64,000 nucleotides of DNA from an uncultured delta proteobacterium (GTDB lineage: Bacteria; Myxococcota_A; Polyangia; Fen-1088): NCBI GenBank assembly GCA_963796685.1, contig CAWCMR010000025.1, positions 800,001-864,000 of the forward strand, read 5' to 3'. Both the position numbers and the translations under genes were made by a program. A model generated the notes under the pieces. That model was not told where the DNA came from. It worked only from the letters and a program-made list of their open reading frames with translations, and ran no database searches. Within the stretch, counting starts at the first letter, position 1. Each line of letters opens with the position of its first letter. This document shows positions 37,526 to 50,231 of this stretch, in pieces.

Positions 37526-38572
37526 CTACGCGGCCGCGCTCTCGGCGCTCGCAACCGGCGCCGGCGCGCCGAGCCTCGCATTCTCCGCCTTGCGCAGGGC
37601 GACCAGTTTGTCGCGGAGCTCGGCCGCCAGCTCTGGATGCTCGGCGAGGTACTGGCAGGCCTTGTCGCGTCCTTGGGCGATGCGCTCGCCGTTCCAGGCG
37701 TAGTAGGCGCCGGACTTCTCGATGAGGCCGGCCTCGCTGGCCAGGTCCACGATCTCGCCGACGGCGGAAATGCCGGTGCCATAGGTGATCTCGAATTCGC
37801 ACTCGCGGAAAGGCGGAGCGACCTTGTTCTTCACCACCTTTACGCGCGTCTTGTTGCCGACCACTTGCTCGCCGTTCTTGACCGTGCCGGTCTTGCGGAT
37901 GTCGAGGCGGACGCTGGCGTAAAACTTCAGCGCGTTGCCGCCCGTGGTGGTTTCGGGGTTGCCGTAGACCACGCCGATCTTCTGCCGGAGCTGGTTGATG
38001 AACACCACGCAGGTGTTGTTGCGGCAGGTGGCTGCGGTCAGCTTGCGCAGGGCTTGGCTCATGAGGCGGGCTTGCAAGCCCATGTGGGAATCGCCCATCT
38101 CGCCTTCGATCTCGGCCTTGGGCACGAGCGCGGCCACCGAATCGACGACGATGAGATCGACGGCGCCGGTGCCGACCAGCTTGTCGGCGATCTCCAGGGC
38201 CTGCTCGCCGTGATCGGGTTGCGAGACCAACAAATCCTCGATGCGGACGCCGAGCTTGCGCGCGTAGGTGACGTCCAGGGCGTGTTCGGCGTCGATGAAG
38301 GCGCACACGCCGCCCGCCTTCTGCGCCTGCGCGATGGCGTGCAAGGTCAGCGTGGTCTTGCCCGAGGACTCGGGGCCGAAGATCTCGACCACGCGTCCGC
38401 GCGGCAGGCCGCCCACGCCCAGGGCCAGGTCGAGGCCGACCGAGCCCGTGGGAATGACGTCGATGTCCTCGGCCTCGCCACCGAGGGACATGATGGCGCC
38501 CTTGCCGAATTGCTTCTCGATGGCCGCGAGCGCGCTGGAAATGGCTTTCAGTTTCTCTTTGATGGTGGACAT
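37526..38572 (-). CDS. recA: Recombinase RecA
   Basis: [57 protein letters not shown]. Confidence 0.98.
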
Positions 38573-38574
38573 TT

Positions 38575-39075
38575 CTAATCTCCTTCGTTAGTTGGGTGAA
38601 CCACAGAGGACACAGAGGACACAGAGGACACAGAGGACACAGAGGACACAGAGACGGACTTCGGAGGTTTCAAACGACGAACTCCGTGTTTGAGCAGGCC
38701 GACGTTGAAGTTGATGAGGAGGCCAAGCGGAAGCCCGGAGAGCTTCAGATAGGACAGGAGCTGCGCACTGTGGAGAGCCACCAGTTGGTCGACCGCCTTG
38801 ACCTCGACGATCAGCACATCGTCGATGACCAGATCGAGACGATATCCACAGTCCAGTCGCGAACCTCGATAGACAACGGGGAGTTTGCGCTGGCGCTCGA
38901 CCCGATGTCCCTGAGAGACAAGCTCATGGGCTAGGCAAATCTCGTACGCCGATTCCAAAAGTCCCGGGCCCAGAAACCGGTGAACTTCAATGGCACTTCC
39001 GATTACCGCCTCCGAGATCCGGTTCAACCCGTCCTTTCCGACCTCTGTGTCCTCTGTGTCCTCTGTGGTGAACAT
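38575..39075 (-). CDS. GxxExxY protein (PD-(D/E)XK nuclease family)
   Basis: [44 protein letters not shown]. Confidence 0.93.
38602..38653 (+). repeat. 9-bp tandem array (CACAGAGGA) x5.8
   Basis: Directly visible. Confidence 0.95.
39042..39067 (-). repeat. Inverted 9-bp array (CACAGAGGA) x2.9
   Basis: CCTCTGTGTCCTCTGTGTCCTCTGTG, the reverse complement of the left array. Confidence 0.95.
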
Positions 39076-40577
39076 CAAGCAGTCTCCCTATCTAGAAACC
39101 GGTACTGCAACGCCTCGGCCACGTGCGGGCCACGGACACTGGTGGAGGCCTCCATGTCGGCGATGGTGCGCGCCAGCCTGCGCACGCGTTCGATGGCCCT
39201 CGCGGACAGAGCCAGACGCTCGACCGCGCGTTCGAGGAGGCGGTGGCCGTCGCCGTCGAGCACCGCAACTTTTGCCAGGTCGGGCGTGCTCAGGCGCGCG
39301 TTCGGCCGCGGGCCGCGGTCCAGCTGTCGGCGGCGCGTATTTTCCACCCTGGCGCGGACGTCCACGGTGGCCTCGCCCGTTTTGCTCGACGACAGCTCGC
39401 GGTAGGCCAGGGCAGGCACCTCGACGTGCATGTCGATGCGGTCGAGGAGCGGTCCGGACAGTTTCGCCCGGTAGGCGTTGATGGCGGACTGCGAGCAGGT
39501 GCAGGTGCGCAAGCGGTTGCCGAAGTGGCCGCATGGACACGGATTGAGCGCGGCCACCAGCATGAAGTCCGCCGGAAAGAGCACCGTGCGCCGCGCGCGC
39601 ACCACGGCGATCTCGCGCTCTTCGAGAGGCTGGCGAAGCGCCTCCAGGGCCGGCCGACTGAATTCGAGCAGCTCGTCGAGGAAGAGCACGCCGTTGTGGG
39701 CCAGCGAGATCTCGCCCGGCCGCACCGACGGTCCGCCGCCGGCCAGGCCCGCCACGCTGACCGTGTGGTGGGGCGCGCGAAAAGGCCGCTCGGTGACCAG
39801 GGATCGTCCCGCCAGCATGCCGGCGACGGAGTACACCATGGTGGTTTCCAGCGACTCGTCGAAGGTCAGGGCGGGCAGAAGGCCCGGCAAGCGTCGCGCC
39901 AGCATGGTCTTTCCCGACCCGGGCGGCCCGACGAAGAGGATGTTGTGACCTCCCGAGGCCGCGATCTCGAGAGCCCGGCGCGCGATCTCTTGGCCGCGGA
40001 CGTCGGCCAGGTCGGCGCCCGAGGTGGGCAGAAAAGCAGGCGGCGTCGCCGGCTCGATTCCGGTCGCTGTTCCCTGCAAGGCCTCGATGAGCTCGCCGAG
40101 ATGTCCGACAGGGATGACCGAGCAACCACCCACCACCGCGGCCTCGGAAGCGTTTTCCCTGGGCACGAACAAGCGCGGGATGGCGCGCGCCCGGGCGTAG
40201 GCGGCCATGGGCAGCACGCCGCGTACGGGACGCACGCGCCCGTCGAGGGCCAACTCGCCCACGAACATCGCGCTCTCGTTCACCTCGGGCGGGATGGCGC
40301 CCGCAGCGGCCAGGATACCCACGGCGATGGGAACGTCGAAGGCGGCCCCGTCCTTGCGCAAATCGGCTGGCGCCAGGTTCACGGTGATGCGACGGAGCGG
40401 GTACTTGAAGCCACTGTTCTCGATGGCGCCGCGAATGCGGACGCGGCCTTCCTTCACGCCGGCATCCGGCAGGCCCACGATGCGGCAGCCGGGCAGGCCG
40501 TTGGCCACGTCCACCTCGACGTGGATGGGCGCGGCCTCGATGCCGACGACGGTTGCGGAGAGAACGTGAGTAAGCAC
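39075..40577 (-). CDS. comM: YifB/ComM family Mg-chelatase-like AAA+ ATPase
   Basis: IVGLPD, ITVNLAPADLRKDG, GPPGSGKTMLA, RPFRAPHHT, HNGVLFLDE, NPCPCG, SGPLLDRID, ARTIAD. Confidence 0.93.
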   Translation of the reverse strand: MLTHVLSATVVGIEAAPIHVEVDVANGLPGCRIVGLPDAGVKEGRVRIRGAIENSGFKYPLRRITVNLAPADLRKDGAAFDVPIAVGILAAAGAIPPEVNESAMFVGELALDGRVRPVRGVLPMAAYARARAIPRLFVPRENASEAAVVGGCSVIPVGHLGELIEALQGTATGIEPATPPAFLPTSGADLADVRGQEIARRALEIAASGGHNILFVGPPGSGKTMLARRLPGLLPALTFDESLETTMVYSVAGMLAGRSLVTERPFRAPHHTVSVAGLAGGGPSVRPGEISLAHNGVLFLDELLEFSRPALEALRQPLEEREIAVVRARRTVLFPADFMLVAALNPCPCGHFGNRLRTCTCSQSAINAYRAKLSGPLLDRIDMHVEVPALAYRELSSSKTGEATVDVRARVENTRRRQLDRGPRPNARLSTPDLAKVAVLDGDGHRLLERAVERLALSARAIERVRRLARTIADMEASTSVRGPHVAEALQYRFLDRETA

Positions 40578-40765: not shown

Positions 40766-41437
40766 CTAGGTATCGCAGGTACCGCCAGCCCACACGAAGA
40801 TGTCGGGCTCGCGGGTGCGCGCGCAGCGCAAGCCACACAGCCCGGCCGCGAATCCGAGGGTTTTCTCGGCAAAGAAGTTGAGGTGGGTCGCGTCGCGCGC
40901 GTACCACCACGACGCCACCTCGGCCACGGACGGATAGCATTGCGTGCGCACCACGACGCGCCCGTCGGGCTCGAGGCAATGCTTGAGCCTCCGCATCTCG
41001 CCGCGCAGATCGCGCAGGTGCTCGATGACCTCGCATACGACGACGATGTCGTAGCGGCGGTCGAGCGCGGAAAGACCCTTGCCGTACAGCGGATCGTAGG
41101 CAGCGCAGTCGAATCCACGCCGGCGCAGAAGGTCCGCGAGCACGGCGTTTTCTCCGCTGCCAAAATCGAGCACGCGTGGTGCCGCGATTCCGATCTCCGT
41201 CACCACGTCGGCGACCTGCCCCAGGAAATTGACGTAGCCTTCGTTCGAGGGCGAGTTGTCGTGGTGGGCGTAGCGTGCCCGCTCCTCGTCCTCGCTCGGC
41301 CAGAATTCGCCGGGCACGAACACCAAGCCGCAATTCGGACAATGGACGAACGCCCTGTGCTTGTTCCGTCCCGCCGGTACGCAAGCCGAAGCCACGCACA
41401 GCTTGCAAGCACCGGGGGTCGAGAGCCCGCCTGTCAC
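40766..41437 (-). CDS. Class I SAM-dependent methyltransferase with N-terminal CxxC pairs
   Basis: CKLC, CPNCGLVF, ERARY.HH.N, VLDFGSG, YDP, EVIEHL, WWYARDATH. Confidence 0.85.
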   Translation of the reverse strand: MTGGLSTPGACKLCVASACVPAGRNKHRAFVHCPNCGLVFVPGEFWPSEDEERARYAHHDNSPSNEGYVNFLGQVADVVTEIGIAAPRVLDFGSGENAVLADLLRRRGFDCAAYDPLYGKGLSALDRRYDIVVVCEVIEHLRDLRGEMRRLKHCLEPDGRVVVRTQCYPSVAEVASWWYARDATHLNFFAEKTLGFAAGLCGLRCARTREPDIFVWAGGTCDT

Positions 41438-42165
41438 CAGCCGCATGTCGTGACGACGTCGCTCGGCCCTGCACCCCTGCCGCAACCGTTCGTCCCGCAC
41501 AGTCCGCTGGTGCATTCCTCGTCAAAAGTACAATCCTGGCCGTCGGCTGTCTGGGCCACACACTTGCTGCCGTTGCAACCGGCCCCGGCCACGCACTCCG
41601 AGCGGCCGCCAGGGTTGGTGTCGCAAGCCTCGCCGATACTGGCTGGCGCCGAGCACACGTGCATGGCAGACGGACAAACATTGGGCACCCTGCACTCGGC
41701 GTGTTGCGAGCAGGATTGGCCGAGCTCGGACTGGCCCACCACGCAGTGCTGGGTGCTGTCGCAGTAGGCGGGATCTTCGCAGCCACCCGTGTCCGAGCCG
41801 CAAGACTCGCCGACCTTGGCTATCGGCAGGCAGACGATGTTGGTCAGACTGATGTCGGTGGCCGTGCAGCGCGTGCCCGGCCGGCACACGGGCGAGAAGT
41901 TGCCGGTGGTGGAGCAGTCCTCGCCTGCTTCGAGATCGGCCACGCACAGAGGCTGCTCGCTCTGATCCGTGCAGCGGCACTCGACCACCTTGCCGGCCAC
42001 GGCCTGGCAGTCATTGAAGGCCGTGCACACGCCGCCGAGTTGCACCGAGCCCGGTACCACGCCCGCTTTCTTGGCGGCGGAGTCGCAGGTCGTCAAAGTG
42101 ACCACGCCCACGGCAGCAGCCCCCAGGCATAGCAGGGGAACGATCTTGGCAAGGAGTGTGGTCAT
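41434..42165 (-). CDS. Cys-rich repeat lipoprotein (Dickkopf-like GxxC repeats)
   Basis: Signal peptide; repeated GE.C.....C....C units. Confidence 0.7.
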   Translation of the reverse strand: MTTLLAKIVPLLCLGAAAVGVVTLTTCDSAAKKAGVVPGSVQLGGVCTAFNDCQAVAGKVVECRCTDQSEQPLCVADLEAGEDCSTTGNFSPVCRPGTRCTATDISLTNIVCLPIAKVGESCGSDTGGCEDPAYCDSTQHCVVGQSELGQSCSQHAECRVPNVCPSAMHVCSAPASIGEACDTNPGGRSECVAGAGCNGSKCVAQTADGQDCTFDEECTSGLCGTNGCGRGAGPSDVVTTCGW

Positions 42166-42336
42166 GGTGCGGTCGCTGGTGATTCGCCTGTTAGACCACG
42201 GCCGCGCTGATTCTATTCACCCCCGGTCCCGGCTCACCCATGCGCCGGCTTCGCACAGGGCTCTTGCTGTGATCGCTGTCGCTTCAATTCGTCCCGGGGC
42301 AAGGGTACTCTTGCAGGCAAAGGATCGGAGCCGATC

Positions 42337-42939
42337 ATGAAAGAGCGCGATATCAGAGACCACATCAATGCCTTTCTCCGAACCAGGCTCCAGAGTTTGG
42401 TGGTGCCTGCTTCGATGGGGATCGGGCTTGCCCTGGGGGCATGTGACACCTCGGCGCTGACATCCAACCAGGATGGCTCCGGGGACGTTTCAGCCATCCA
42501 GCCCAGCTCCGGCGGTGCTGGTGGCGGCCTGACCGGGGCGGGCGGATCGCTCTATGGGCTCGGAGGATCCACGAACCCCGGCCATGGCGGGTCTGGGGGT
42601 GGCTCCGGTGGCTCCGCGGGTGCCGGCGGCTCCGCGGGTGCGGGTGGTGGCTCGGGGGGGGCTGGCGGTGGCGGTTTGACCGGGGTGGGCGGAATGGTGT
42701 ACGGAACCGGAGGATTCCCCTACTCTAGCTCGGGTGGTGCCGGTGGTGGCTTGGCCGGGGCGGACGGAACGGTGTATGGAATGCCGGGATTCAAAGACGC
42801 CGGCCCGTCAGGTAGCGGCGGCGCGATCGATTCCGGGGTCATTCCCGAAGCAGGCAAGGGCGATGCGGGGCACAAGGCAGACGCCCTGGTTTCGGAAGCC
42901 GGGGTTGCCTCGCCACCCGACGGTTCTATGAATGAGTAG
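42337..42939 (+). CDS. Gly-rich lipoprotein with three XYG cassettes; putative radical SAM substrate
   Basis: Lipobox LGAC; repeats ending SLYG, MVYG, TVYG. Confidence 0.75.
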   Translation: MKERDIRDHINAFLRTRLQSLVVPASMGIGLALGACDTSALTSNQDGSGDVSAIQPSSGGAGGGLTGAGGSLYGLGGSTNPGHGGSGGGSGGSAGAGGSAGAGGGSGGAGGGGLTGVGGMVYGTGGFPYSSSGGAGGGLAGADGTVYGMPGFKDAGPSGSGGAIDSGVIPEAGKGDAGHKADALVSEAGVASPPDGSMNE

Positions 42940-43005
42940 ACCATGCTCGCCGCTCGAAGATGACTTTGGCAGGCCCGCGGCCGCGGCTCGTAATCGAGAA
43001 GAACC

Positions 43006-44148
43006 GTGATCGAAGTCTTGGCGCAGGTCGGATTCTTTCCCCACACTTGCGTGTGGGAGCTGACGCTGGCGTGCAACATGCGGTGCAAGCACTGCGGCTC
43101 CGTCGCCGGCAAGCGGCGTGCGGACGAGCTATCGCTCGACGAGTGTTTGCGCGTGGCTGGCGAATTGGTGGCGCTGGGATGCCAACGCATCACCCTGATC
43201 GGCGGCGAGCCAATCCTCTACCCGGGCTGGCACGAGGTGGCCAAGCGTCTGGTCGAGCTGGGAGCCCAGGTCAACATGATTTCGAACGGCCTGACCTGGT
43301 CGCCCAAACACCTCGAGCAGGCGAAGGCGGCTGGGCTGTGCGCGGTGGGCTTCAGCCTCGACGGTTTCGAGAAGGAGCACGACGCGTTCCGGGTGCCTGG
43401 CTCGTTCGCGCGGGTGGTGCGCGCCATCGACGATTGCGTGGCGGCCGGCATGCGCACGGCGGTGAACACGACCATCAACCGGCTCAATCAAGGTCTCCTC
43501 GCGGAGATGCGCACCTTCTTGATGGAGCACGGGGTTTTCGCCTGGCAACCGCAGCTGGCCACCGCCGCGGGGAACATGGGAGAGCACCGCGAGCTGCTCG
43601 TGCGTCCGGAAGATCTGTTGTGGCTGGTGCCAAAAATCGCGGAGCTGTGCCTGATCGACTGCCCGGAATTCGAGATCTGCGTCGGCCACAACATCGGCTA
43701 CTTCGGCAATCCCGAATCGGCCCTGCGCGCCGCGGATGTCGCCCTACCCTTTTGGCTCGGGTGCCGAGCCGGTTGCCAAGTGATCGGGATCGAGAGTGGC
43801 GGAGATGTGAAGGGCTGCCTCTCCTTGCCTTCGTCGGTGCACGGCGAACGTCGCTTCGTCGAGGGCAACGTGCGGGAGATGGGTCTAAGCGACCTTTGGA
43901 ATCGCGCGGACGCTTTCGCGTACAACCGGTGCTTCCAAGAACGGCAGCTGTGCGGCTTCTGCCGCGTTTGCCGCTTTCGCGACGTGTGTCGCGGCGGCTG
44001 CAGTTGGGCTTCCTATGCCCAGGGCGGCCGCGGCAACGAGCAGTGCTTCTATCACCAGGCGGTCAAGCACGGGCGCCTCGATCTGCTCGCCGAAGCGCCG
44101 ACCGCGGAAGAAAAGAGTTACTTCGAGGGCGGCGTCCCGGTGCGCTGA
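43006..44148 (+). CDS. Radical SAM/SPASM maturase, PlpX splicease-like
   Basis: VWELTLACNMRCKHCGS.AG, TLIGGE, NIGYFG, WLGCRAG..IGIESGGDVKGCLSLP, CRVC.FRDVCRGGCSW. Confidence 0.88.
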   Translation: MIEVLAQVGFFPHTCVWELTLACNMRCKHCGSVAGKRRADELSLDECLRVAGELVALGCQRITLIGGEPILYPGWHEVAKRLVELGAQVNMISNGLTWSPKHLEQAKAAGLCAVGFSLDGFEKEHDAFRVPGSFARVVRAIDDCVAAGMRTAVNTTINRLNQGLLAEMRTFLMEHGVFAWQPQLATAAGNMGEHRELLVRPEDLLWLVPKIAELCLIDCPEFEICVGHNIGYFGNPESALRAADVALPFWLGCRAGCQVIGIESGGDVKGCLSLPSSVHGERRFVEGNVREMGLSDLWNRADAFAYNRCFQERQLCGFCRVCRFRDVCRGGCSWASYAQGGRGNEQCFYHQAVKHGRLDLLAEAPTAEEKSYFEGGVPVR

Positions 44149-44155
44149 GCTTCGG

Positions 44156-47084
44156 TTACCGCCGCACGAACAGCTTCAACTTCCCGATGCCGACGCCCGG
44201 GAGGTAGTGGGCAAGCAGAAACTGGTGCAGCTCGGGAAAGCCGGTCAACGACTGGGCACTGTCCAATCTGTCTCCGGTCACGAAGGGGAAGACGTCATTC
44301 TCCTCGACCACGACGACCGAAGGCGGGTGGCTGGTCAAGTCCGCCATCAAGCGCGGGCGATACCGGCCGCCCCATGCAACCCGTTGTGGGACGTCGTAGA
44401 TGTAGGGCGTCGAGGATGCCCGTCCGGCCAAGTCGTAGATGACGGGTTCGAACCCCCAGACGTAGATCGGCTGGTCGGGAGGTGTATTGCGCACAATCCA
44501 GCTCGCGATCCTGCGGTTGTCGCCCGCGCTCACGTTTGACGCCGAATGAAGACGGTCCATCAGGTCTTGGCGCCGCTCGGCGTTTGCGAAGACGGACTGT
44601 GAACGTACGCGGTTGCGCGCCCAAAACGAGGCGCGATACGGCGGAAGAATCCTTTCGTCCTTGAGCAACAAGAGAACGCCGACCAGCGCGAGCACCGGCA
44701 GAAGGTGCGTCCGCAGGCGTGTCCACAACTTCCACAATCCCCACCCGGCGGGCAACCCGAGCAAGAGAACGATGGCTGCGTAGTGATACGGGAAGAACTT
44801 GGCTTGGAGTGCGACACCGATGATGGGAAAGAAGGCGACGGCAAGGACATGCAGAAGACCCAGGCGCTCGCGCGCGGCCAAGATGGGCAGGGAGAGCGCG
44901 AACAGAATACCGAAGGCATCGTGGCGGGAAAACCCGAACAGCGACTCGGTCCACGCGCGCGTGAAGAGCGCGAGGGCATCGTGTTTCCGATATCCCAGCT
45001 TGGTGTAGCTGGGCACGAACCGGAACAGCGTGTCGACCATCGCGGGCATGGCTCCCTTCGCGGCGATGTAGGACCCGACACATGCCAGCGGAAGCGCTGC
45101 CCCGAGGGCGATGAAGAAGAGCGGCCCCGCGCTGGCTCGCAGTCGGGCGAGGCGCCCGCTCGATCCGGCTGCGCGCGCATGGCCGAGCAAGAACGGGGTC
45201 AGCACCACGGCCCCGGCCAGTCTGCGGCTTGAGCACCCCAGCCATCCCGTAGCCCACGCCTACCAGCAGCCAGAGCGCCTTCTGCGCGGCCCCACCACGG
45301 TTCGGCAAGGTGGCGCGCTCGCTGGAACATAAGACCAGCGCCCAGATCAGGAAGAGGCCCGCAAAGCCTTCGGGCTGTGCCGTGCTCCAGAATTCGAGCT
45401 GGACGTAGGCCATGACCGACAGGGCAACGGCGGGCAAGGCCGGGCGCCACGAACCGACCCAACGTTTGCAAAGCACGAGGAACGCGGGAAAAAGGGATAG
45501 AAGCCCGATCGCCTCCACGATACGAATGCCGACCATGCCTCGGCCGAACAGAAGGCGAGCGACGGCGTAGACGAAGAAGATCCCCGGTGGCTTGAAATCC
45601 CAAGCGTCTCGGTAGGGCGCTCCACCCTCGAGCATGGTTCGCGCCACGACGGCGTAGATTCCCTGATCGCGGCCATACTGAAAGAGCAAAAGGTGAGCGA
45701 CGAGATAGAGGGATAGCAAGACGCAGGCGACCAGCCCCGCCGCCTCCACCCGCGCTGCGACAGCGTGCGGGAGCGGGATCAACCATCGGCCAAGCCGCCG
45801 CACGCGCTCGGCAAAGACTCTCATGGATGCTTCACCCGCCAGCATGACCACCCAGACCACGCTCAGCAACGCGGCACCCGCGAACACGTAGGAGGCAGTC
45901 AGAAGCGCCGCTGCATGCCGCAAGCCGCGGACCTCGAAATAGCTGGCCATGAGAACGGCCGAAAGGGCAAGGGTGCGCGCGACCGTGCTCCCTGTTTCCC
46001 CGATGGTGGGCGGCAGGTCCGCGAGTCGCTGGCAAAGCAACGCCAGGCAAAGGATCGCGGGGGCGAACTGGTGCTCCCACGCGATGGGCGCCGCCAGGGT
46101 CGCGGCCAGCCAGGCCAGACCCATGACATCCGCGCGCAGGCTCGCGTCGCGAGGCAAGGCCCGAATGCGGAGCGCAAGGTAGAGGAGACTCAGGCCGCCG
46201 AGGCAGAGCGAAACCATACGCGCGGCGCTGCTCAACGGCGCGACCACGAGATGGGCCGCCAATTCCGGGTGAAGCAAACGGGCCACCACCCCATTCCACG
46301 ATTGGTTCGAGTAGTAGGCGTAGCCGGACGAGAGCGCCGGTAACACCCGAGTCAGGTAGTCCACGTTCGCGGACCAGCCTGCGTAGGCGACCGACACCAG
46401 GGCAAGCCCGAGACCCGACAGCAAGGTGCTGACCAGCGTTCGGCGCGCGTGCCAATAGAGCAGCGGCACCATGAGCACCAGGGTGGGATGGAGCGCGACC
46501 GCCAAGGCCACGGCGACCCCGGCGACGACCTCCTTTCCCCTTTGCATGGCCACCAGGCTGGCGCCGAGCAGGACGGTGATGAGCATCGTGGTCTGGTTGT
46601 GCTCGAGGGCGCGCATGAGCGGCTGCCAGAGCAGCAACGCGAGCGCGAGGACGCCAGCGCGCCAAGCCGATGCCATGGTCGAGGCGCGGGTGGGCCGCAC
46701 CAGCAGCGCCAGCAGGACAAAGATCGCCGCGAACAGACAGCGATTGGCCATGAACAGCCAAGCAACGGCGTCATAAGGTGAGAGCCCGGCGAGCGGCCGG
46801 TAGAGCAAGGCGGAAAGCGGCGCGGAGGTGAAGGACGCCCCCTCGGCGGGGATCGTCGCGTACATCGGCTGCCCCCGGGAAGCACGCAGGGCGGCCTCGG
46901 CAGCGGGCCACACGTCGCTGATGTCCGTGCCTTCGATCCGCCAAAGGCTGGTCACGGCGTCCCATCCCGCGTTGCTTTCACTGCTGACGCGGGTCTGGAT
47001 GAATCCCAACAGAACGCCCAGCAGACCGAGCAGAAGCGCTTGGCGCGCGAAGGTACGCTGACCCAACCAAGAGAGCTTCATCAT
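44156..47084 (-). CDS. Fused double GT-C membrane glycosyltransferase (GT87-like + ArnT/PMT-like), frameshifted near 45222
   Basis: N-half polytopic with NQS and WEH motifs; C-half GRDQGIY, PYRDAWDFKPPG, KFFPYHY, IYVWGFEP. Confidence 0.7.
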
Positions 47085-48895: not shown

Positions 48896-49282
48896 CTAGC
48901 GCGCGGGAAGCGGACGCGGTGGCGGCGGGGGCGGCGGCAGTGGCGGCGGAGGTGGCGGCGGGGGCGGGGGCGGCGGGGGCGGGGGTGGCGGCGGCGGCGG
49001 CGGCGGCAAGCGAGGCGGGGGGATCGGCATGCCGGCGTTGGACGTTGGTCGGAATAGCTGCGGCGGTCGCCCGTTTTCCGTCCGAGGCTGCACGCTCGCC
49101 TCCGACTTCGGGGCGCGCGTAACCGACGGCCACAGCCACAGGACAATGCCCACGATCGCCAGGCCCAGGGACAACCCGGCGACCTTGCCCGCCGCGGGCC
49201 ATCGCATGAACAGCCTGGAAACGGCGGCAACGGTCAACCCGAGACCACCGAGCACGACGAGCATGATGCCGGGGGATTGCAT
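48896..49282 (-). CDS. Small two-TM protein with polyproline tail
   Basis: Two hydrophobic helices then P22-L-P7. Confidence 0.55.
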   Translation of the reverse strand: MQSPGIMLVVLGGLGLTVAAVSRLFMRWPAAGKVAGLSLGLAIVGIVLWLWPSVTRAPKSEASVQPRTENGRPPQLFRPTSNAGMPIPPPRLPPPPPPPPPPPPPPPPPPPPPPLPPPPPPPRPLPAR

Positions 49283-49472
49283 GGCCGTGAATAGTAACCC
49301 AAACGCGAACCCCTTGCCGGACCGCCCCGAGGAAACGCGTGGGTTAGCGGCAAGTATCCTGGGCGTATCCCTGCCACGAAGGGCGGGCAAATTGTGCAGC
49401 CGCCAAGGCCCGTTCGTCTCATGAGTCGTTGCTGGCCTTGCGCCACGCGGACAGACTTGGATCGGTTCGGCG

Positions 49473-50231
49473 ATGAGCAACAGCAACCCAGAGGCCTTCG
49501 AGATCGAGATAGCGGCGTTGAGCGATGCCGGCACCGAACGGGGCCACAACGAAGACCACTGTGGCAAGTACATCAAGAGCAAGAGCAGCGGCTTGGTCGC
49601 GGTGGCGGACGGCATGGCCACCCTCGAAGGTGGAGACCTCGCCAGCCAACGGGCCATCCTGGCGCTCATGCGCTCGTTCCGCGAGCTTGCCCCGGGCATG
49701 ACCCAGGCGCAGCGACTGGTGCGCGCGGCCCGCAACGCCAACTACGAAGTCTACGACATGGCCTTGGTCGTTCCCCAGTTGCGCGGCATGAGCACGACCC
49801 TGACCGCGGTGGCGGTCAACGAAGGCGACCTGACCGCCGCGCACGTGGGCAACAGCCGCATGTATTTGATCCGCGATGGCTACATCAACCAATTGAGCAA
49901 GGACCACACCGTCGGCGCCGAGGCAGCGGCGGCGGAAGGCCACTATGCGCTCAAGGACAGCCACGTGCTCACGCGAACCCTGGGGCGCGAGCTGATCCTC
50001 CCCATCGATTTGTTCGAGCTCGATCTCGTGCAGGGCGACGTGGTGCTCCTTTGCACCGACGGCCTATACCGCGTGTTCGAGGATCTGGAGATTGCGGAGC
50101 TCGTCAAGGGCCTCGATGCCGCCACCGCGTGCCGCAAGCTCATCGACGAGGCCAACGTCGTCGGCACCATCGACAACGTCACCGTCGCGGTCGTGCGCGT
50201 GATCGGCGAAACGCCCGGAACCCGACGCTGA
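49473..50231 (+). CDS. PP2C-family Ser/Thr phosphatase
   Basis: SDAG..R.HNED, VADGM, AHVGNSRMY, DH, LLCTDGL, DNVT. Confidence 0.9.
   Translation: MSNSNPEAFEIEIAALSDAGTERGHNEDHCGKYIKSKSSGLVAVADGMATLEGGDLASQRAILALMRSFRELAPGMTQAQRLVRAARNANYEVYDMALVVPQLRGMSTTLTAVAVNEGDLTAAHVGNSRMYLIRDGYINQLSKDHTVGAEAAAAEGHYALKDSHVLTRTLGRELILPIDLFELDLVQGDVVLLCTDGLYRVFEDLEIAELVKGLDAATACRKLIDEANVVGTIDNVTVAVVRVIGETPGTRR

Follow-up and report, generated by a model that had tools for sequence, protein, structure and literature searches.

A splicease-related radical SAM/SPASM enzyme and its Tyr-repeat lipobox partner form a conserved gene pair in Polyangia: a candidate system for backbone editing before export

RESULTS

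A lipobox protein and a radical SAM/SPASM enzyme are encoded side by side

The stretch of DNA analyzed here (the window) comprises 64,000 nucleotides from an uncultured delta proteobacterium (Myxococcota_A; Polyangia; Fen-1088), namely positions 800,001–864,000 of contig CAWCMR010000025.1, forward strand, in assembly GCA_963796685.1. Its plus strand carries a gene for a Gly-rich lipobox protein of 200 amino acids (aa) with three Tyr-Gly cassettes (42337..42939, start ATG), hereafter the precursor. At 66 bp from the precursor stop begins the downstream gene of a 380-aa radical S-adenosylmethionine (SAM)/SPASM enzyme, which is related to spliceases and has no tetratricopeptide repeat (TPR) domain (43006..44148, + strand, start GTG). 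Both genes were taken from the open reading frames (ORFs), and the enzyme was further characterized by domain searches and trees. An earlier note on this DNA had described the pair and interpreted it as a PlpX/PcpX-type splicease acting on a lipoprotein at X-Y-G sites; the ORF listing and a codon check confirmed its observation, with all coordinates and motifs correct. It had also noted the lack of any PlpY-like gene, protease or exporter next to the pair, and our analysis of the window locus gave the same result.

Residues 1–36 of the precursor (42337..42444, +), which were delimited with an alignment of 19 precursors, constitute a putative leader and signal peptide. The charged, probably helical N-region is about 19 residues long (residues 1–19 contain five K/R and three D/E; net charge +2) and is followed by a hydrophobic stretch of 18 residues and the lipobox L-G-A-C (residues 33–36; Cys36 at 42442–42444). 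The mature part is 36% Gly and contains three cassettes on the + strand, which are 79-nt direct repeats with 63–73% identity to the reference copy. Cassette 1 (42505..42583) contains Tyr73 (L-Y-G, codon 42553), cassette 2 (42652..42730) contains Tyr122 (V-Y-G, codon 42700) together with the non-motif Tyr129 (codon 42721), and cassette 3 (42727..42805) contains Tyr147 (V-Y-G, codon 42775). The precursor has no other Tyr, and Gly comes next after the first, second and fourth.

Neither the precursor nor four of its relatives matched any Pfam or NCBIfam family, even at E 10. In the alignment, which holds the window sequence and 18 of the 19 unique non-window precursors left after duplicate removal, M1, R7, P24, C36 and D46 are invariant, and the tails vary freely in length and composition. 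With the lipobox Cys kept in 19/19 rows, the motif and its conservation together predict a lipoprotein signal. We also found 19 public proteins with the window-type leader, all unnamed or ‘hypothetical’, with one to seven copies each of a G-S/T-hydrophobic-Y-G-x-G-G cassette. Gly follows Tyr at 70 of their 83 Tyr residues, against a Gly fraction of 0.32 (binomial 1.5e-22, a value that is overstated because the sequences are related). The Y-G motif pointed out in the earlier note is thus retained in the window's own subfamily.

The enzyme lies close to two maturase models, one presumed to be that of a splicease

The enzyme matched the Pfam families Radical_SAM (PF04055, E 7e-24) and SPASM (PF13186, E 2.7e-6). 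The CX3CX2C motif of the radical SAM cluster (C23/C27/C30; 43072..43095, +) is invariant in an alignment of 35 enzymes, as are C253, C271, C319, C322, C328, C332 and C347. The SPASM domain, with its auxiliary-cluster cysteines, occupies residues 253–322 (43762..43971, +; PF13186). The enzyme therefore has the radical SAM core and the SPASM domain with auxiliary-cluster cysteines that characterize a splicease.

Among NCBIfam models, the enzyme scored best with TIGR03913 (‘GDL motif peptide-associated radical SAM/SPASM maturase’; 261 bits, profile positions 16–354 of 477) and TIGR04103 (‘nif11-class peptide radical SAM maturase 3’; 243 bits), followed by TIGR04133 (123 bits). Because the first two rank on top and both scores are under the curated cut-offs, the enzyme is a member of neither equivalog, yet lies in their neighborhood. 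We take TIGR04103 to be the model of the PlpX splicease, presuming that it corresponds to IPR026482. A passage in PMC11002830 assigns the founding splicease, PlpX, to IPR026482. Eight enzymes encoded beside P-L-Y-G-repeat or NHLP-type A-Y-G precursors scored 216–264 bits with TIGR04103 and 194–254 bits with TIGR03913, and the scores of the window enzyme fall in the same range. The match to PlpX/PcpX motifs that the earlier note proposed was assessed here through the NCBIfam models, of which TIGR03913 and TIGR04103 are the nearest, with the enzyme far under both cut-offs. The Protein Data Bank (PDB) offered no close structure, the best matches being SkfB (E 2e-32) and PqqE, which cover the radical SAM core only.

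The pair is conserved while the neighboring genes change

A relative of the enzyme was encoded in 203 of 248 candidate stretches, and 80 loci (numbered with an L) were kept. At all 11 of the loci L001–L011, where the enzymes are 65–88% identical to that of the window, an upstream ORF has the same leader and a Tyr-repeat tail; the frame is disrupted at L012. Across the class (L093–L121, n = 29), a leader-bearing precursor lies directly upstream at 14 loci and none was found within 500 nt upstream at 13 (L102, L107, L108, L111–L116 and L118–L121), while L093 and L117 are cut at the locus edge. Apart from L102, L107 and L108, the 13 belong mostly to a separate clade of 45–51% identity. The enzymes that share a subclade with that of the window are those of L001 and L099 (71–88% identical over the full length) and of L093 (80%; the locus starts at the gene). 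The family is common, with a homolog at E <= 1e-60 in 162 of 301 genomes of the class, often in several copies. Only the precursor and the enzyme are common to related loci, and the genes flanking the window pair (recA, a ComM-like gene, a methyltransferase, a Cys-rich protein and membrane proteins) have no counterparts there. These comparisons indicate that a radical SAM/SPASM enzyme and an upstream lipobox precursor form a conserved two-gene module.

More distant enzymes (33–44% identity) occur in Firmicutes, Bacteroidales, Spirochaetes, Desulfobacterota and Methanosarcina. We inspected 28 such loci (L013–L040), and at most of them a neighboring ORF contains at least one Y-G. A large share of these ORFs encode short peptides with 2–7 tandem P-L-Y-G-I/V repeats after a GG-type leader; others are of the NHLP type with A-Y-G-V. 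Within Myxococcota, TIGR03913-like enzymes were present in 52 of 201 genomes at E <= 1e-100, and none of the 201 passed the TIGR03913 cut-off. The partners of these enzymes have an N-terminal zinc ribbon, a hydrophobic stretch with a lipobox, and an acidic tail with Y-G-A/L-P repeats.

Several loci show other arrangements. In the window's own genome, further copies of the enzyme include a TPR-fused one (61% identity) and one at 56% identity that has its own precursor. On contig 5 of that genome (about 387–392 kb; L084 1429–3671, minus strand), two tandem radical SAM/SPASM genes, 42–43% identical, follow a 366-aa lipobox protein, in which a cytoplasmic N-domain (about 130 aa) precedes a lipobox-like stretch, Gly-rich repeats and a C-terminal domain ending in Tyr motifs; this locus resembles a larger version of the window system. 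On contig 6 (about 19.1–19.8 kb; L091 1387–2040, plus strand), a precursor-like gene combines the conserved leader with Y-S/M/V-A-P repeats. It is an apparent orphan, with no radical SAM gene within 3 kb, and may be served in trans by the TPR-fused paralog at contig 25:1585424–1586563. Directly upstream of two enzymes of 50–53% identity stands a 355–386-aa protein with an HExxHxxGxxH zinc-protease motif (L107 319–1479; L108 99–1166) and no Tyr-repeat precursor. A divergent 322-aa lipobox protein, on the strand opposite the radical SAM gene at L113 (479–1447), alternates Y-G-I-P sites with Cys-rich D-N-D-x-D-G repeats and, by its sequence, would consist of folded domains separated by splice-like sites. 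Outside Myxococcota, a metagenome-assembled genome of Spirochaetales (L022 807–1382) encodes, directly before the radical SAM gene, a membrane-anchored protein of 191 aa that has two Y-G-I sites and ends in a dockerin-like region, which is a further candidate substrate of the protein type.

The residue after Tyr differs among lineages

We surveyed the motifs of the 19 unique non-window precursors; the ORFs picked automatically at L013, L120, L129 and L131 were the wrong ones and were disregarded. In the sister lineages, whose enzymes are 50–77% identical, the repeat is hydrophobic-Y-M-A-P-M-P, and Ser, Ala, Ile, Leu and Gln also occur after Tyr. Precursors dominated by Y-G were confined to the window, L001 and L099. 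At L105, one L-Y-G-V-P-M-P site and five Y-M-A-P sites lie within one protein. Across precursors, position +1 is G/M/S/A, position +2 is A/G and position –1 is variable. Beside Tyr, conservation extends to no other residue whose side chain could take part, and for this reason a reaction on Tyr and its own backbone would fit better than a side-chain cross-link. A triceptide-like cross-link was accordingly ranked low as a candidate, since it has no conserved partner residue.

Enzyme trees were built with FastTree (115 rows) and IQ-TREE (36 rows). The neighbor motif labels on the tree were automatic and are noisy in low-GC loci, where stop-to-stop frames produced false labels, so they served as annotation only and the inspected ORFs were relied on. 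The window enzyme groups with those of L001, L093 and L099 (support 99), nested inside successive Y-M-type clades. In both trees, a Myxococcota clade with Y-G-A/L-P precursors is sister to the whole Polyangia set, and clades with Y-G peptides lie further out. An approximately unbiased (AU) test rejected a tree in which the Y-M rows are held together without the Y-G subclade (p 0.001), the tested group having been named after the first tree and including one row, the TPR-fused copy of the window's own genome, that lacks a precursor beside it. Rooted outside the Polyangia clade, the trees would imply a change from Y-G to Y-M/S/A and a return to Y-G in the window lineage. That the residue after Tyr changed both ways while the pairing persisted argues that the enzyme needs Tyr and the backbone rather than Gly.

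A TPR part also comes and goes. Directly downstream of the enzyme, L002–L011 encode a TPR protein of 174–235 aa, and at L082, L101, L103 and L104 enzyme and TPR form one fused protein. Whether separate or fused, the TPR of these sister lineages is homologous to the C-terminal extension of the distant enzymes of about 510 aa. We found no TPR sequence in the window, L001, L093, L099, L102, L105–L110 or L083; the Y-G subclade of the window has thus lost a part that most relatives keep.

The leader and a cassette are predicted to occupy different sites on the enzyme

We modeled a complex of the enzyme, with its 35-enzyme alignment, and precursor residues 1–90, with the 19-precursor alignment, including SAM and three 4Fe-4S clusters. 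The model scored 0.84 as compared with 0.51 for the best of three controls; the contacts agreed by at least 68% between runs, and the predicted local distance difference test (pLDDT) value of the partner was at least 51. The mark used is reached by 116 of 157 solved complexes and by 2 of 215 mismatched pairs, a calibration that holds only roughly here, as custom alignments were used and ligands were included. We know of no solved splicease structure, which makes it less likely that the score reflects a memorized structure.

In the model, leader residues 1–18 contact enzyme residues 1–8, 233–249, 323–327 and 362–363 on the SPASM side. Precursor residues 62–79 (cassette 1, with Tyr73) lie inside the barrel, close to the GGE and cluster motifs, in contact with enzyme residues 13–16, 32, 61–65, 88–92, 112–115, 152–154, 178–186, 223–229, 251–259 and 271–273. 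This predicted placement fits the earlier suggestion that the signal peptide doubles as the leader. Passages by Richter et al. (PMC11414181) describe AlphaFold models of the binary RhaX-RhaA pair with the same layout, and an activation of the enzyme by the leader helix that was found by experiment.

Nineteen enzyme positions separate 4 Y-G-type from 14 Y-M-type enzymes. Eleven of them belong to the 35 modeled cassette contacts, and the 23 leader contacts include not a single one (Fisher 3.7e-8, an overstated p-value, as the test draws on one phylogenetic split and a modeled interface). This enrichment matches a picture in which the leader is conserved and the core pocket was retuned as the core changed.

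Other features of the window

Within 41900–44500, we found no sigma-70-like promoter or intrinsic terminator, a result that carries no information in this organism. The minus strand upstream of the precursor encodes, divergently, a Cys-rich protein of 243 aa that has a lipobox-like N-terminus of its own (41434–42165); it matched no Pfam or NCBIfam family and is not kept at related loci. Between recA (37526–38572, minus) and the ComM-like gene (39075–40577, minus), an ORF on the same strand (38575–39078) terminates in repeated Ser-Val-Ser units, which come from a short tandem repeat in the DNA (38596–38660); its opposite strand reads as His-Arg-Gly repeats. An ORF at 48896–49741 (minus) has a run of more than 30 Pro at its C-terminal end and may be a spurious frame in GC-rich DNA.

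DISCUSSION

A proposed pathway of splicing before export

Comparison of sequences establishes the pairing, the conservation of the leader, the lipobox, the Tyr-centered repeats and the family relationship. From these, we propose that the lipoprotein undergoes tyramine-type splicing before export, with its signal peptide serving as the leader, and we give this reading a probability of roughly 55%. The N-terminal helix (residues 1–18) of the cytoplasmic precursor would dock on the enzyme at its SPASM side, with the cassettes entering the barrel one by one. The enzyme would excise a tyramine equivalent at Tyr73, Tyr122 and Tyr147 and then rejoin the backbone, leaving alpha-keto-beta-leucine at site 1 and alpha-keto-beta-valine at sites 2 and 3, each before Gly. 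The modified, unfolded Gly-rich chain would be exported by Sec, Cys36 would be lipidated, and the cut by signal peptidase II would remove the leader. The product would be a lipid-anchored, flexible envelope protein with up to three electrophilic ketoamides. In short, an envelope protein probably has its backbone edited by the cell ahead of export.

The Sec and signal peptidase II route would suffice for export and leader removal, which would explain why no protease or exporter of a peptide synthesized ribosomally and then modified post-translationally (RiPP) stands beside the pair. Nor is the missing PlpY an objection, because binary spliceases, as a passage in PMC11414181 describes them, lack PlpY and use a leader helix. 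As for the role of the product, our guess is a tethered inhibitor of Ser or Cys proteases or a reactive handle. The inhibitor idea follows from ketoamide pharmacology and from three to four tested spliceotides only, those mentioned in passages of PMC9811515 and PMC11626197.

Several points weigh against splicing. The X-Y-G motif is not kept in the sister lineages, where mostly Met follows Tyr, so that the clade would either tolerate a non-Gly residue there or perform another reaction; we found no literature report of spliceases tolerating a non-Gly residue after Tyr, and no paper with measured chemistry for the clade of the window enzyme. The enzyme falls far below the curated cut-offs (TIGR03913, 261 versus 591.75 bits; TIGR04103, 243 versus 725 bits), shares only 33–44% identity with enzymes associated with Y-G peptides, and is without the TPR domain or partner that its closest sisters (58–77% identical) and the enzymes of about 510 aa have. 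Three of four Tyr are followed by Gly in 13% of 100,000 shuffles of the mature part (p 0.13); the Y-G count of the window precursor alone is within chance, and the signal lies in the repeat structure and the relatives. The rough calibration of the complex model and the single split behind the contact enrichment count on the same side.

The interpretation in the earlier note has accordingly stood in part. The family neighborhood and the upstream proteins with lipobox and conserved N-region were found as it had expected at homologous loci, and Y-G is kept in the window's own subfamily, but the cut-offs were missed, and the sister lineages carry Y-M, Y-S and Y-A in place of Y-G. It had named a lack of conservation of Y-G at homologs as evidence against itself; such a lack was found in the sisters and not in the own subfamily.

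Alternative explanations

The main rival keeps the substrate pairing and changes the chemistry. In a clade that had diverged from the spliceases, the enzyme might epimerize or beta-hydroxylate Tyr, cleave its side chain in the manner of ThiH/HydG, or cross-link its ring. The dominance of Y-M, Y-S, Y-A and Y-I in 16 of the 19 unique non-window precursors speaks for it (the exceptions being L001, L099 and L009, a truncated precursor with one Y-S and one Y-M), as do the scores under both equivalog cut-offs and the pocket residues that changed along with the motif. Yet the outgroup clades all pair with Y-G precursors, the window subfamily returned to Y-G, and the mixture of one Y-G and five Y-M-A-P sites at L105 suggests that the site types are equivalent; for a cross-link in particular, a conserved partner residue is absent, and in many sites +1 or +2 is Gly, a residue without a beta carbon. 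We regard a different Tyr chemistry as possible but clearly less probable than splicing. A different doubt concerns the anchor. The precursor could be a type II membrane protein, held by an uncleaved signal anchor with the leader in the cytoplasm and the tail outside, as related systems have long N-terminal domains before the hydrophobic stretch (zinc ribbons, or about 130 aa at L084) that are unusual for Sec and signal peptidase II. We consider this unlikely, given a Cys in lipobox context right after the hydrophobic stretch in every aligned precursor, a lipobox in most precursors of the TIGR03913-like clade (e.g. L-A-G-C, I-A-A-C, L-T-A-C), and a window N-region of merely 19 or so residues with a net charge of +2.

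The substrates of distant relatives are short multi-core peptides that have GG-type leaders, and the cassettes are repeated as in multi-core precursors, so the Gly-rich protein might instead be the scaffold of a classical RiPP from which unlinked proteases release short modified peptides. No protease or exporter beside the pair is conserved among related loci, no cleavage motif is conserved between the cassettes, and the conserved lipobox provides an export route of its own, which together make this improbable. Least credible of all is an adjacency without a functional link, or an enzyme that is a decayed copy: the TPR partner was indeed lost, but the pairing is kept across loci while other neighbors change, the cluster cysteines are all intact and invariant, and the subclade remains 71–88% identical over the full length (80% in L093).

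Significance in relation to the literature

Beyond the window, we tentatively extend splicing before export to a widespread, undescribed pathway in Polyangia and other Myxococcota, although we consider this broader claim less likely than not as a whole. In such a pathway, a Sec/lipoprotein signal peptide would serve as the RiPP leader, splicease-family enzymes would excise tyramine at Tyr-Gly and at Tyr-Met/Ser/Ala, which would make Gly dispensable, the pocket would be retuned with the core, and the products would be multivalent ketoamide lipoproteins of the envelope. If true, these would be the first natural backbone-spliced proteins with a structural or defensive function, rather than secreted peptides.

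Published work already covers spliceases, binary systems that lack a Y protein, and protein substrates, as passages of PMC11414181 and PMC9811515 document. A large mining study (Scott et al. 2022), according to a passage in PMC10849128, chose enzymes by their Y-G-rich neighbors, covered 189 genera and confirmed 27 pairs. Within the collection of papers searched, we found none that joins spliceotides with lipoproteins or tyramine excision with myxobacteria, though myxobacterial lipobox precursors may be included in Scott et al. 2022, and a full-text search of that collection found no paper naming TIGR04103, TIGR03913 or TIGR04133. Four features appear to be new: a signal peptide that serves as the leader, sister systems with Y-M/S/A sites, a TPR that is fused in some lineages, separate in others and lost elsewhere, and the co-variation of pocket and core.

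To our knowledge, tyramine splicing is the sole route to beta-amino acids in ribosomal products. Its natural end products, as stated in a passage of PMC9811515, have not been found in native hosts. A lipoprotein substrate would give the modification a cellular address, the envelope, together with built-in export and leader removal, and would show that it serves proteins as well as secreted peptides. The Y-M/S/A sister systems would widen the sequence rule for genome mining, since mining by Y-G counts, as outlined in the cited part of PMC10849128, would miss them, and they would offer spliceases with new site tolerance for protein engineering.

Comparison with known systems

The window pair resembles the type I cyanobacterial spliceotide systems PlpX/PlpA and PcpX/PcpA in that a radical SAM/SPASM enzyme is encoded beside an X-Y-G precursor and in that TIGR04103 is one of the two best models. 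The hydrophobic residue before Tyr and its context also recall the splice tags P-L-Y-G-L-P and A-G-Y-G-V-V (PMC10533398). Unlike these systems, the window has no PlpY, its precursor is of the lipobox type rather than the Nif11/NHLP type, the TIGR04103 score is about a third of the cut-off, no epimerase or other maturase lies near the pair, and the product probably stays a protein. With the Rheinheimera binary type II systems RhaX/RhaA and RcsX/RasX, it shares the two components and, according to the complex model, a precursor leader helix on the enzyme with the core in the active site. In the Rheinheimera systems, as passages of PMC11414181 and PMC11626197 report, the leader helix binds and activates the enzyme. 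In contrast to them, the window leader would also be a Sec/lipoprotein signal peptide, and the core is a Gly-rich tail with three sites instead of a short disulfide-bridged peptide.

The TIGR03913 look-alikes of Myxococcota are akin to the window system in their best model, as a sister clade, and in having lipobox partners with Tyr repeats. Their enzymes, of about 390–420 aa, are about 36–40% identical to that of the window in the best-aligned segment, and their partners differ in the zinc-ribbon start, the acidic rather than Gly-rich tails, and the acidic residues that follow Y-G-A/L-P. The TPR-fused radical SAM/SPASM enzymes of about 510 aa in Firmicutes, Bacteroidales, Spirochaetes and others, which accompany tandem P-L-Y-G-I peptides, show 33–44% identity and the same top two models, and they are probably among the types of Scott et al. 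2022; the window enzyme differs in having no TPR, whereas theirs act beside short precursor peptides that carry GG-type leaders. Anaerobic sulfatase-maturating enzymes provide a precedent for modification before export, as cytoplasmic radical SAM/SPASM enzymes that act on a signal-peptide-bearing protein, and one PDB entry, 4k37, was a weak match (E 1e-5). They catalyze a formylglycine reaction at a single site without leader-helix recognition, whereas the window enzyme would be guided by a leader helix to excise tyramine at three sites of one envelope protein.

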